Positions 29,808 to 44,979 of a stretch of DNA of 64,000 nucleotides are shown here, piece after piece (position 1 is the stretch's first letter; each line of letters starts with the position of its first letter). Origin of the DNA: Escherichia coli (GTDB lineage Bacteria > Pseudomonadota > Gammaproteobacteria > Enterobacterales > Enterobacteriaceae); the NCBI RefSeq assembly GCF_051903065.1, contig NZ_CP178438.1; one strand, given 5' to 3'. Below the pieces are notes generated by a model. That model did not search any database and was not told the DNA's origin. It saw only the letters and a program-made list of their open reading frames with translations. The position numbers were made by a program, and so were the translations under genes.

Positions 29808-30086
29808 TTACCCAAAGAGCGCCGCGTGAGTTCCAGTTCTCTCAAATCGTAAAAGTTTATCGGTAAGTTTGTAAATCAGGAGCCAGTCCGGTTCGACATG
29901 AGCATCGCGATAACCTTTCCATGAACCTTGCAGCGGGTGGTCTTTATAAACAGCTGGAATCGGTAAAGTATTATTGATAAGAAGCGTCATAAGATATTTC
30001 AATTTATTCATATCCTTATGACGCTTTTGTGCAAGTTTTACATCCTTTGAAAATTGTCCCGAGTATTCAATATCCCTTTGAATCAT
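29808..30086 (-). CDS. yafQ: Type II toxin YafQ (RelE-like mRNA interferase)
   Basis: 92 aa, matches YafQ. Confidence 0.95.
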   Translation of the reverse strand: MIQRDIEYSGQFSKDVKLAQKRHKDMNKLKYLMTLLINNTLPIPAVYKDHPLQGSWKGYRDAHVEPDWLLIYKLTDKLLRFERTGTHAALFG

Positions 30087-30088
30087 AT

Positions 30089-30349
30089 TTAAATTCCTAA
30101 TTTATCAAATAAATCATCGGCGTCTTTGGCCTTATGAACATCAACGCCAGCTTCGCTGTTTTTGATTGATTGAATGGTTAATTGATTAGGCTCGCGTAAA
30201 TCAAACGGCAATGCCTTTTCACGCGCGACCTTTGTGAGGGTTATGCGAACCAGGTCAGAGATGGTCAGCCCCATCCCGGCCAGTACGTCCGCCGCCTGAT
30301 TCTTCAGATCTTCATCGATTCGGGCGCGAACAAACGCGTTAGCAGCCAT
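30089..30349 (-). CDS. dinJ: Antitoxin DinJ
   Basis: 86 aa, matches DinJ; 2-bp spacing to yafQ. Confidence 0.95.
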   Translation of the reverse strand: MAANAFVRARIDEDLKNQAADVLAGMGLTISDLVRITLTKVAREKALPFDLREPNQLTIQSIKNSEAGVDVHKAKDADDLFDKLGI

Positions 30350-31483: not shown

Positions 31484-31981
31484 ATGTCTGAATATCGTCG
31501 TTATTACCTCAAGGGGGGAAGCTGGTTTTTCACGGTGAATTTACGGAATCGTCGAAGCCAACTTTTGACTACCCAGTACCAGACGCTCCGTAACGCCATT
31601 ATTAAAGTTAAGCGAGCCAGACCTTTTGAAATTAATGCCTGGGTAGTTTTGCCGGAGCATATGCATTGCATATGGACATTACCCGAAAGCGATGATGATT
31701 TTTCCTCCCGCTGGCGGGAGATTAAAAAGCAGTTCACCCATGCTTGCGGATTGAAAAATATCTGGCAACCGCGTTTTTGGGAGCACGCCATTCGCAATAC
31801 CACAGATTATCGCCATCATGTTGATTATATTTATATAAATCCAGTGAAACATGGCTGGGTAAAGCAGGTGAGAGATTGGCCATTCTCAACGTTCCATCGC
31901 GATGTCGCGCGAGGGTTATATCCCATCAATTGGGCGGGAGACATAACGGATTTGAGCGCTGGGGAGCGTATCATTTTATAA
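31484..31981 (+). CDS. rayT: REP-associated tyrosine transposase RayT (TnpA_REP)
   Basis: 165 aa, matches RayT/YafM; flanked by REP clusters. Confidence 0.9.
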   Translation: MSEYRRYYLKGGSWFFTVNLRNRRSQLLTTQYQTLRNAIIKVKRARPFEINAWVVLPEHMHCIWTLPESDDDFSSRWREIKKQFTHACGLKNIWQPRFWEHAIRNTTDYRHHVDYIYINPVKHGWVKQVRDWPFSTFHRDVARGLYPINWAGDITDLSAGERIIL

Positions 31982-32112: not shown

Positions 32113-33843
32113 TCAACTCAACGCCCCCATAATCTTCAACTCCAGCTCATCCGGCACTTCGTTATACGACAGCACATGCAGCCCCGGCGCAAACAATCTT
32201 GCATAACGCGCCAGCAAAGGGCGCAGCTGCGGCGGCACCAGCAGCACCGGGTCTTTCCCCGCTGCTTTCATCTGCTCCTTCACCTGCGGCATCGTGCTCT
32301 GGAACTGGTTGAGCATGTTCGGGTCGACCGGCACGCTGTCGAGCATCACTTTACCGCCCTGTTGCGCCTGATTCACCACATTGGTGAGCAGATTTTCCAG
32401 CTCATTATTCAGCGTATACACCGTCAGCTCCTGCTTGCGAACGAACGGATGGGTAATGCTGCGCCGCAGCGCCAGGCGTACATCGACCGCCAGCAGAATA
32501 TGATCTTTAGTCACCGCGCTACTGGCGACCAGCACGGTGGCGATGGTGACGATATCGCGCAGGGAAACGCCTTCGGTCAGTAGTGTGCGGTACACTTTCA
32601 GCAACTGGCTGTAATTCAGCGCCGCGCTTAAGTCTTCTGCCAGGCGCGGTGCCATCGACGACAAACGGTTATGCAACTGTGTGATGTCGTCATAGTTAAA
32701 CAAATCAGGAATATAGCTGCGTACAATCTTATTCACATGGGTGGCAATCACGCTGGCGCTGTCGATCACCTGATACCCCATATTCAGCGCCTTCGCTTTC
32801 TGCGCAGGCTGGATCCAGGTCACCGGCATCCCGTACGCCGGGTCGTTCCCCAGCACGCCGTCAATCTCGCCGTAGGTTTCGCTGGAGGGCAGGGCCATCA
32901 GTTTATCCGCCGGAATATCCGCTTCATCAGCCTTAATGCCGTTGATGAAAATAGCGTACTGGCTGGGCTTAAGGCGGAAGTTTTCCCGAATGCGGATCTC
33001 CGGCAGCAGCACGCCGTTGCCGTCGGATATCACCTGTCGCACGCCGCGAATACGCTGGGTGAGCGGGTTGCCCTGGGCTTTGTCCACCAGCGCCACCAGC
33101 TTGTAACCGAGGCTTAAACTGATAGGCTCGATCAGCGGTATCGTTTCCCAACTGACCTGTTGCTCGCTGGTTTCGGTGATGGTGCGGGTCAGCGTTTCGA
33201 GACTTTTCTCCTCCGCCTCCGCTGCCTGCGGGCGTTTGCTCATCCGCCAGCCGGTAAAGCCAAGCAGGGCGCTGAACAGCAAAAACGGCAGATGCGGCAT
33301 TCCCGGCACCACCGCCAGCACAAACATAATCCCGGTGGCGGTGTAGAGCACCGACGGGCTTGCCAGCAGCTGGTGGCGCACGTCATGGGCGATATCGCCG
33401 TTGTCGCTGACGCGGGTGACGATAATCGCCGCCGCGGTGGAGAGCAGCAGGGAAGGGATCTGCGCCACCAGCCCGTCGCCGATGGTCATCAGCACATATT
33501 GCTGGAAGGCAGCATCGGCGCTCAGGTTGTATTTGAAGATCCCGATACAGACACCGCCGATCAGGTTGATCGCCAGAATCATCATCCCGGCGATGGCGTC
33601 CCCGCGCACAAACTTTGATGCCCCGTCCATCGCGCCGTAGAAATCGGCCTCGCTGGCGACATCTTTACGCCGGGTTTGCGCCTGCGCCTGGTTGATCAAC
33701 CCGGCGTTAAGGTCGGCGTCAATCGCCATCTGTTTGCCGGGCATCGCGTCCAGGGTAAAGCGGGCAGAAACCTCGGAAATACGCTCGGCCCCTTTGGTGA
33801 CGACGATAAAGTTGATTGTCAACAGCGTCAGTAAATCCGAGCG
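32113..33843 (-). pseudogene. lfhA: Flag-2 flhA homologue remnant, 5'-truncated
   Basis: FlhA-like from about residue 135 onward (VTKGAERISEVSARFTLDAMPGKQMAIDADLNAGLI...); N-terminal membrane region absent. Confidence 0.8.
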
Positions 33844-34582
33844 TGAAAGCATTATCGCCGCGCTGCACGGGCAGTCGATTTTCAACGGTGGCGGGTTGTC
33901 GCCGTTAAATAAAATCAGCCCGTCTCATCCGCCAAAACCTGCCACCGTGGCGGTGCCGGAAGAGACGGAGAAAAAAGCGCGCGACGTCAACGAGAAAACG
34001 GCGCTGCTGAAGAAGAAATCCGCCACCGAGCTTGGTGAGCTGGCAACCAGTATCAACACCATTGCCCGTGATGCGCATATGGAAGCGAATCTGGAGATGG
34101 AGATTGTCCCGCAGGGATTACGCGTGCTGATTAAAGACGACCAGAATCGCAATATGTTCGAACGCGGCAGCGCGCAGATTATGCCGTTCTTTAAAACGCT
34201 GCTGGTGGAGTTAGCGCCAGTGTTCGACTCGCTCGATAATAAAATTATTATTACCGGGCATACCGATGCGATGGCCTACAAAAACAATATCTACAACAAC
34301 TGGAACCTTTCGGGTGACCGCGCGCTTTCGGCTCGTCGGGTGCTGGAAGAGGCCGGAATGCCGGAAGATAAAGTGATGCAGGTAAGCGCAATGGCGGACC
34401 AGATGCTGCTGGATGCCAAAAATCCGCAAAGCGCGGGCAATCGGCGTATTGAGATTATGGTGCTGACCAAAAGTGCGTCCGATACGCTGTATCAATACTT
34501 TGGTCAGCATGGGGATAAAGTGGTGCAGCCGCTGGTGCAAAAGCTGGATAAGCAGCAGGTGCTTTCGCAGCGAACGCGCTAA
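33844..34582 (+). pseudogene. lafU: Flag-2 motB-like remnant, 5'-truncated (junction coordinate approximate)
   Basis: OmpA/MotB C-domain (IIITGHTDAM...NWNLSGDRALSARRVLEEAG...NRRIEIMVL); no MotB N-terminal TM segment. Confidence 0.7.
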
Positions 34583-34620: not shown

Positions 34621-34636
34621 CTGTATACTTTACCAG
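34621..34636. promoter_or_regulatory. LexA box upstream of dinB
   Basis: CTGTATACTTTACCAG 17 bp upstream of the dinB ATG. Confidence 0.8.
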
Positions 34637-34652: not shown

Positions 34653-35708
34653 ATGCGTAAAATCATTCATGTGGATATGGACTGCTTTTTCGCCGCAGTG
34701 GAGATGCGCGACAATCCCGCCCTGCGCGATATCCCTATTGCTATTGGCGGCAGCCGCGAACGTCGGGGGGTGATCAGCACCGCCAATTATCCCGCGCGTA
34801 AATTTGGCGTACGCAGCGCTATGCCGACAGGGATGGCGCTCAAATTATGCCCACATCTCACCTTGCTTCCGGGGCGCTTTGACGCCTACAAAGAAGCCTC
34901 AAATCATATCCGTGAAATCTTCTCGCGCTACACCTCTCGCATTGAGCCGTTGTCACTGGATGAGGCTTATCTCGATGTCACCGACAGCGTCCATTGCCAC
35001 GGTTCTGCGACCCTCATCGCCCAGGAAATCCGCCAGACGATTTTCAGCGAGCTGCAACTGACGGCGTCTGCGGGCGTGGCGCCAGTAAAGTTTCTCGCCA
35101 AAATCGCCTCCGACATGAATAAACCCAACGGCCAGTTTGTGATTACGCCGGCAGAAGTTCCGACATTTTTACAAACCTTACCACTGGCAAAAATCCCCGG
35201 CGTCGGCAAAGTCTCGGCGGCAAAACTGGAAGCGATGGGGCTGCGGACCTGCGGTGATGTACAAAAGTGTGATCTGGTGATTCTGCTTAAACGCTTTGGC
35301 AAATTTGGCCGCATTTTGTGGGAGCGTAGTCAGGGGATTGACGAGCGCGACGTTAACAGCGAACGGTTACGAAAATCCGTCGGCGTGGAACGCACGATGG
35401 CGGAAGATATTCATCACTGGTCTGAATGTGAAGCGATTATCGAGCGGCTGTATCCGGAACTTGAACGCCGTCTGGCAAAGGTAAAACCTGATTTACTGAT
35501 TGCTCGCCAGGGAGTGAAATTAAAGTTCGACGATTTTCAGCAAACCACTCAGGAGCACGTCTGGCCGCGGCTGAATAAAGCTGACTTAATCGCCACCGCG
35601 CGTAAAACCTGGGATGAACGCCGCGGCGGGCGAGGTGTGCGACTGGTGGGGCTGCATGTGACGTTGCTTGACCCGCAAATGGAAAGACAACTGGTGCTGG
35701 GATTATGA
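34653..35708 (+). CDS. dinB: DNA polymerase IV
   Basis: 351 aa, [20 protein letters not shown]... Confidence 0.97.
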
Positions 35709-36157
35709 ATAACATACAAATAAGAAACTATCAGCCTGGCGATTTTCAGCAACTATGCGCTATTTTCATTAGAGCGGTTATGATGACCGCCAGTCAGCAT
35801 TATTCACCACAACAAATTGCCGCCTGGGCGCAGATTGACGAATCTCGCTGGAAGGAGAAACTCGCGAAATCACAAGTGCGGGTTGCAGTCATTAATGCAC
35901 AACCGGTTGGTTTTATTTCCCGCATTGAACATTATATCGATATGTTATTTGTTGACCCTGAATACACCCGCCGTGGGGTTGCCAGTGCTTTGTTAAAACC
36001 TTGGATTAAGTCTGAATCCGAACTTACGGTGGACGCCAGCATAACCGCAAAACCCTTTTTTGAACGTTATGGTTTTCAGACAGTTAAGCAGCAGCGCGTT
36101 GAATGCCGGGGAGCGTGGTTTACTAATTTTTCTATGCGATATAAACCGCAACATTAA
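35705..36157 (+). CDS. yafP: GNAT-family acetyltransferase YafP
   Basis: 150 aa; ATG overlaps the dinB stop (ATGA). Confidence 0.85.
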
Positions 36158-36462: not shown

Positions 36463-37011
36463 ATGGAATGGTACATGGGCAAATATATTCGTCCCTTATC
36501 CGATGCGGTATTTACCATCGCATCTGATGACCTGTGGATCGAGAGTTTAGCGATCCAACAATTACACACCACGGCAAATTTACCCAACATGCAGCGCGTA
36601 GTGGGGATGCCAGATTTACACACCCCGGACGCGGCTACCCGATTGGCGCAGCGTTCTTCTCTGTTGGTCGTTTTTACCCGGCAAGACGTCGCGGTAACGG
36701 TGCTGGAAACCGAAGCCGGGCGTTATCCTGACACGCTGCGTTCGTCGGGGCCGGGCGGTCAACATGTCAATAAAACCGACTCGACGGTACGCGCCACGCA
36801 TTTGGCATCCGGTATTAGCGTGAAGGTTCAGTCAGAGCGTAGTCAGCATGCTAACAAGCGGCTGGCACGATTGCTGATTGCCTGGAAGCTGGAGCAACAG
36901 CAACAGGAAAATAGCGCAGTGCTGAAATCGCAGCGGCGAATGTTCCATCACCAGATTGAACGTGGCAACCCGCGACGGACATTCACAGGGATGGCTTTTA
37001 TCGAAGGATAA
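36463..37011 (+). pseudogene. prfH: rtcB'-prfH' fusion remnant (release-factor homologue RF-H with GGQ motif, truncated)
   Basis: N-terminal ~50 aa resemble the RtcB N-terminus (...VVGMPDLH...); the rest is release-factor-like ([20 protein letters not shown]...). Confidence 0.6.
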
Positions 37012-44903: not shown

Positions 44904-44979
44904 GCCGATATAGCTCAGTTGGTAGAGCAGCGCATTCGTAATGCGAAGGTCGTAGGTTCGACTCCTATTATCGGCACCA
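44904..44979 (+). tRNA. thrW: tRNA-Thr (anticodon CGT)
   Basis: GCCGATATAGCTCAGTTGGTAGAGCAGCGCATTCGTAATGCGAAGGTCGTAGGTTCGACTCCTATTATCGGCACCA; cloverleaf with CGT anticodon. Confidence 0.95.

Follow-up and report, generated by a model that had tools for sequence, protein, structure and literature searches.

The four-gene operon dinB-yafN-yafO-yafP of Escherichia coli K-12 (McKenzie 2003 and Singletary 2009, as cited in Gutierrez et al. 2011, NAR 39:4192, PMC3105422) raises a question in those genomes where dinB is followed directly by yafP: has the yafN-yafO toxin-antitoxin (TA) pair been lost from them, or was it never there? Operons with only dinB and yafP were reported by Gutierrez et al. 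in 40% of 98 sequenced strains and in 50% of the ECOR strains, the two genes being "always fused together" through a 4-nt ATGA overlap. In that study (PMC3105422) the B1 strains all had two genes, nearly all A strains had four, and groups B2 and D were mixed; a YafP-YFP product was made in the two-gene strain CFT073, its level rising with mitomycin C and in stationary phase; and a four-gene ancestor was deduced, with E. fergusonii as the outgroup, from which yafNO had been deleted at least three times. In a review, Fraikin et al. 2020 (PMC7167474) speak of yafNO as "inserted immediately downstream of dinB" and of dinB-yafP, in strains without the TA pair, as a bicistronic operon left undisturbed. 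The stretch of E. coli DNA analysed here, 64 kb in length and referred to below as the window, carries a locus of this second kind.

In the window dinB, encoding DNA polymerase IV (351 aa), was located at 34653..35708 of the + strand, and yafP, encoding a GNAT-family N-acetyltransferase of 150 aa, at 35705..36157 of the same strand. Both genes were intact according to the open reading frame (ORF) list and to NCBIfam, where DinB matched NF002677 with 544.5 bits (cut-off 256) and YafP matched NF007338 with 324.6 bits (cut-off 146), and dinB was intact also by comparison with K-12. In tblastn searches the proteins were 99.1% (DinB, across 351 aa) and 96% (YafP, full length) identical to those of K-12. 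Direct reading of the junction, ...CTGGTGCTGGGATTATGAATAACATAC..., showed the tetranucleotide ATGA at 35705-35708, and the alignment with K-12 placed it within a single copy of ATTATGA (35702..35708, + strand), which holds both the stop codon of dinB (TGA) and the start codon of yafP (ATG). The overlap reported in the initial annotation was thus borne out by the sequence and by the ORF list. The same annotation had described dinB as fused to yafP, which is right for the adjacency and the overlap of the genes and wrong for their products: the yafP frame is +2 relative to that of dinB, so that these are two overlapping cistrons and no fusion protein is encoded.

Nothing of yafN or yafO was found between the two genes, and K-12 YafN and YafO used as tblastn queries gave no match anywhere in the 64-kb window (best E = 2.1-2.8). 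A type II module of the YafN-YafO kind, that is a PhD/YefM-type antitoxin with a YafO toxin, is missing both from the operon and from the rest of the 64 kb. The alignment against the K-12 dinB operon, which had been proposed as a check, was run with MG1655 (annotated as dinB-yafN-yafO-yafP) and gave the same answer: one clean block of 759 bp was missing from the window, there was no second indel, and the near-identical flanks were otherwise collinear at about 98% nucleotide identity. This block is made up of the 51-nt dinB-yafN spacer, yafN, yafO and the 9-nt spacer between yafO and yafP, and in K-12 its borders carry a 7-bp direct repeat (...GGG-ATTATGA-TGTATAC...TTTAT-ATTATGA-ATAAC). ATTATGA therefore occurs twice in four-gene genomes, bracketing yafNO, and once in the window. 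All nine of the four-gene sequences examined (L001, L003, L005, L011, L016, L019, L021, L023 and L026) had both copies and a distance of 755 nt from the dinB stop to the yafP start.

The remainder of the locus is shared with K-12. The dinB and yafP genes (98% nucleotide identity) and the promoter with its LexA box are common to both, as are the lafU remnant upstream and the rtcB-prfH remnant and pepD downstream; what distinguishes the K-12 operon is a 759-bp block, containing yafN, yafO and another ATTATGA, that the window lacks. In the 93-nt region upstream of dinB one base differs from K-12, and the SOS box core CTG-N10-CAG of the dinB promoter (CTGTATACTTTACCAG, 34621..34636, + strand) is identical. 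From established knowledge of K-12 dinB we take this element to be the LexA operator. Compared with the two-gene operon of CFT073 and of all B1 ECOR strains (PMC3105422), which has the same genes, the same ATGA overlap, the same absence of yafNO and the same SOS promoter context, no structural difference was found, the window being set apart by a few private SNPs only (for example at dinB nt 990 and yafP nt 282).

With high confidence, the SOS-regulated dinB operon is present in the window as a natural two-gene variant, at a site empty of the accessory yafNO cassette. A LexA-controlled promoter would produce a single mRNA encoding DNA polymerase IV and the acetyltransferase YafP. The yafNO genes would represent an accessory cassette of 752 bp that, together with a duplicated ATTATGA, occupies exactly the same site in the other half of the species, and the lineage of the window would either never have carried it or have lost it cleanly, whether the two 7-bp repeats recombined or slipped or an empty allele took its place. 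The layout is an ordinary and documented presence/absence polymorphism of a TA cassette, and both the finding and the two evolutionary readings of it have already been published. What is added here, namely the empty layout in other genera, the two states on near-identical haplotypes and the low divergence of yafNO, is incremental.

The frequency of the two states was determined in 5426 complete E. coli genomes, using as probe the 80 bp centred on the junction and counting it when contiguous. The identical, contiguous junction was present in 2565 of them (47%), K-12 yafNO DNA in 2847 (52%; median of one copy per genome), and the dinB/yafP locus itself in 5414. The two states are complementary: junction-positive and yafNO-positive genomes add up to 5412 of the 5414 that bear the locus. 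The initial annotation had taken K-12 as the reference arrangement. The four genes of K-12 are as it stated, but at 47% against 52% they are not the reference for the species, and K-12 is no species norm at this locus. Since the TA-less form is about equally common and is also seen in other genera, the statement that an operon "lacks" its TA module need not mean loss.

A third allele, dinB-yafN-yafP, was found in three of the 5426 genomes (MEI003, GF43 and OZ282453). Here yafO is lost after its first ~26 nt and joined, through TTAT microhomology, to the ATTATGA that precedes yafP, which leaves an orphan antitoxin (E. coli MEI003, NZ_CP071263.1, L028 2187-2219); a 1-nt variant of this junction was seen in Escherichia sp. 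E1V33 (L002 3966-4001).

The polarity of the change was examined in outgroups. A scan of species representatives with YafP, by exact peptide patterns, returned 4-5 loci and did not reach E. fergusonii, E. albertii or any genus besides Escherichia; outgroups beyond it were reached by protein search followed by contig look-ups. In the scan, E. whittamii and E. coli SCPM-O-B-8794 showed four genes, and Escherichia sp. MOD1-EC7003 two genes with a junction identical to that of the window. E. marmotae has the two-gene form with the ATGA overlap (GGGGTTATGAATAAC). In Citrobacter amalonaticus the TAA stop of dinB is followed after 5 nt by the ATG of yafP, in Kluyvera sichuanensis the gap is 2 nt, and two further enterobacterial contigs have gaps of 2-5 nt; yafNO was absent from between dinB and yafP in E. 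marmotae, C. amalonaticus, K. sichuanensis and these two contigs. The outgroup genes lie in conserved synteny, with yafJ-dpaA or nqrF-nqrM upstream and pepD-gpt-frsA downstream. Since the outgroups have dinB next to yafP and none has yafNO, the TA-less adjacency is the ancestral state at the level of the family, and yafNO an insertion within Escherichia. The identical boundaries and the two ATTATGA copies in 9/9 four-gene sequences point to a single insertion event. The GC content of yafNO (41.8%, compared with 54.2% for dinB) was considered as a sign of foreign origin and set aside as weak, since yafP is equally AT-rich (43-44%).

Comparison of the nine four-gene sequences showed that the cassette is less diverged than the genes on either side of it. 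Between K-12 and UTI89 the differences amounted to 4.9% in dinB, 1.9% in the cassette and 5.3% in yafP, and between K-12 and E. whittamii to 6.2%, 2.0% and 6.4%, respectively. Synonymous divergence in the deep pairs (Nei-Gojobori) was 0.043-0.058 for yafN plus yafO, 0.23-0.33 for dinB and 0.17-0.28 for yafP, so that yafNO is 4-7 times less diverged than its neighbours, also between E. coli and E. whittamii. In Fisher tests the lower value of yafNO gave p values from 6e-5 to 3e-9 when set against dinB and from 0.02 to 1.5e-5 when set against yafP, and the divergence falls sharply at the yafP border of the cassette. In these nine sequences the low divergence suggests that the cassette spread horizontally or was homogenised at a later time, or else that the alleles of dinB and yafP are unusually divergent.

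Two of the nine, E. coli AST262 (L023 2157-2555) and SCPM-O-B-8794 (L003), had an internal stop in yafO and an intact yafN. Such stops beside an intact antitoxin gene are toxin-first decay of the module.

For the history within the species, 14 further E. coli loci were chosen across the identity range, and dinB and yafP were compared over 22 sequences. Two-gene and four-gene states were fully interspersed on the local trees of both genes, and the dinB tree was incongruent with the yafP tree, which indicates that the locus recombines. The yafP gene of the window matches that of the two-gene strain E. coli ECNB21-M121 (YafP WP_001059871.1) at every nucleotide; the same protein accession is annotated as YafP in the four-gene strain 114. 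Strain 114 differs from the window and from ECNB21-M121 at one of the 453 nt of yafP and at four positions in the final 456 nt of dinB. In the same way AVS0225 (two genes) and UTI89 (four genes) differ at 2 positions in ~825 nt, covering the last ~370 nt of dinB and the whole of yafP, and the dinB 3' regions of R1 (two genes) and EA13 (four genes) are nearly identical. Because an exact excision across the 7-bp repeat restores the ancestral sequence letter for letter, never-occupied and emptied sites look alike. As the nearest flanking haplotype found was that of a four-gene strain, secondary loss of yafNO in the lineage of the window is slightly preferred.

One account of this history, proposed by Gutierrez et al. 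in 2011, makes four genes ancestral for Escherichia; the lineage of the window, like at least three others, would have lost yafNO by deletion between the ATGA/ATTATGA repeats. We give it about an even chance. It competes over the history only and leaves the identity of the two-gene feature unaffected. In agreement with it, E. fergusonii has been reported with four genes (PMC3105422), E. whittamii and another Escherichia genome were found with four here, and the cassette is flanked by the 7-bp direct repeats in every four-gene sequence. The near-identical flanks with either state in at least three backgrounds (window/114, AVS0225/UTI89 and R1/EA13) point in the same direction. The yafNO genes of UTI89 are 14-19 nt away from every other copy examined, with flanks close to those of AVS0225, a pattern compatible with the AVS0225 line having lost the cassette recently. 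In addition the toxin gene decays independently, with an internal stop in two sequences and deletion in others. Against the model, the empty layout of the outgroup genera and of E. marmotae restricts a four-gene ancestry to part of Escherichia at most, and a synonymous divergence of yafNO 4-7 times below that of its flanks is not expected for genes inherited vertically with them.

By the opposite account the operon of the window is the ancestral state, never invaded, and yafNO a comparatively young selfish cassette that has moved across Escherichia into exactly the same 7-bp target. Movement of a discrete cassette between lineages and species (E. coli, E. whittamii) would explain both the lower synonymous divergence and the sharp drop at the border. 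We hold this account for the window itself as possible but rather doubtful. If true, it would reverse, in part or in full, the published scenario of four ancestral genes and at least three deletions.

The remaining alternatives concern the nature of the junction. Gutierrez et al. proposed that YafP is derived from the dinB frame by programmed frameshifting, which would make it a functional DinB-YafP fusion or a frameshift-dependent product, and the observation in its favour was reproduced here: a strong Shine-Dalgarno sequence is missing before the yafP ATG (TGGTGCTGGGATTATG), as these authors had likewise found (PMC3105422). Inspection of the window and of the K-12 sequence revealed a good Shine-Dalgarno in neither the two-gene nor the four-gene context, so that K-12 yafP, which begins 9 nt past the yafO stop, is equally without one; moreover, yafP retains its own ATG. 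In Citrobacter and Kluyvera the genes lie 2-5 nt apart, each with its own ATG, and this argues that the conserved mode is coupled initiation at independent start codons, a mode favoured here over the frameshifting of the 2011 proposal, which we regard as very unlikely. No overlap of stop and start codons is commoner in E. coli operons than ATGA, a classic context for termination-reinitiation. Given that the yafP ATG overlaps the dinB TGA in this manner, YafP is most likely made by termination-reinitiation coupled to the translation of dinB.

Still less probable, and in our judgement highly improbable, is a relocation of yafNO to another locus or to a plasmid. Toxins of the YafO family are known from plasmids, and 254 plasmid records gave some YafO match. 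Of these, 241 contained relatives with less than 60% identity (30-36% among the matches listed), mostly from Klebsiella and Enterobacter and some from other genera including E. coli. The few "plasmid" matches to yafNO itself include an F' plasmid that carries the K-12 copy and one chromosome-sized record filed under plasmids. These records have to be set against the failure of YafN and YafO to match in the 64-kb window by tblastn, and against the population counts, in which 5412 of the 5414 genomes are accounted for with a median of one close copy. The counts make it very unlikely that a TA-less genome keeps a close copy of yafNO elsewhere, and such genomes would essentially never do so; the objection, raised with the initial annotation, that the pair might lie elsewhere falls with them. 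The other objection raised there, a misassembly in which yafNO was collapsed or dropped at the junction, has nothing in its favour except that the K-12 reference is different, and was dropped as wholly implausible on the evidence of the population, given that 2565 independent complete genomes from many laboratories and platforms have the same junction, that PCR and sequencing of ECOR strains had confirmed the two-gene junction (PMC3105422), and that a repeat of only 7 bp is too short for collapse.

A natural allele empty of the cassette being the preferred reading, the YafO mRNA interferase would not be co-induced by the SOS response in the genome of the window. According to Fraikin et al. (PMC7167474), deletion of yafNO was without effect on SOS induction, adaptive mutation and fluoroquinolone survival. 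Similar cases are mazEF in relA-mazG and ccdO157 in folA-apaH, type II TA pairs inserted among the genes of core operons, likewise present or absent at a fixed chromosomal site, whose host operons are intact and functional without them; dinB-yafP is named explicitly as one example in the review (PMC7167474). They differ from dinB-yafP in locus and toxin family, and the empty site of the latter additionally merges stop and start codons into ATGA. The empty ancestral layout, the shared haplotypes and the low divergence of the cassette could contribute to the discussion of chromosomal TA modules, which may be selfish insertions or stress genes that the host has domesticated. The same review cites UTI89 as TA-less with a bicistronic dinB-yafP, and the RefSeq record labelled UTI89 (NZ_CP062228.1) has four genes with yafN and yafO intact; the example may concern mazEF alone.

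Several neighbouring features of the window were also recorded. A second type II TA module, DinJ-YafQ, had been noted as intact nearby, and this was upheld: the antitoxin gene dinJ (30089..30349, - strand; tblastn match at 30092-30349, 98.8%, 86/86 aa) and the toxin gene yafQ (29808..30086, - strand; match at 29811-30086, 96.7%, 92/92 aa) are full-length tandem ORFs without internal stops, separated by a 2-nt spacer (AT) from the dinJ stop to the yafQ start. Directly upstream of dinB, as in K-12, lies the scar of the Flag-2 lateral-flagella cluster (32113-34582), in which a truncated lfhA/flhA-like gene (- strand) abuts and overlaps lafU (+ strand); in E. marmotae motA/motB-like genes are still found upstream of dinB. 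Downstream, the 182-aa ORF at 36463-37011 (+ strand) is a remnant in which the start of an rtcB-family RNA ligase gene is fused to the end of prfH (the ykfJ/prfH pseudogenes of K-12), and intact rtcB (379 aa) and prfH (204 aa) occupy this position in E. coli R1, UTI89, LWY24 and AVS0225 and in E. marmotae.

Over positions 24000-48000 of the window the only complete genomes with 100% identity were those of E. coli 23CRST027 and 23CRST031 (human faeces; 23CRST027 from Ecuador). These contain an additional ~777 bp, an IS1 element in rayT, the gene of a REP-associated tyrosine transposase (L029 19485-20759), which is intact in the window at 31484-31981 (+ strand). None of the Clermont phylogroup markers lies within the window. 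Its right part contains a tRNA-Thr(CGT) gene at 44904-44979 (+ strand). In the annotation of the nearest relative this gene is immediately followed by a tyrosine integrase and lambdoid genes (yfdP-T, a LexA-family repressor, RusA, a Q antiterminator and a holin), and a prophage appears to be integrated at thrW, extending to about 46100 and beyond.
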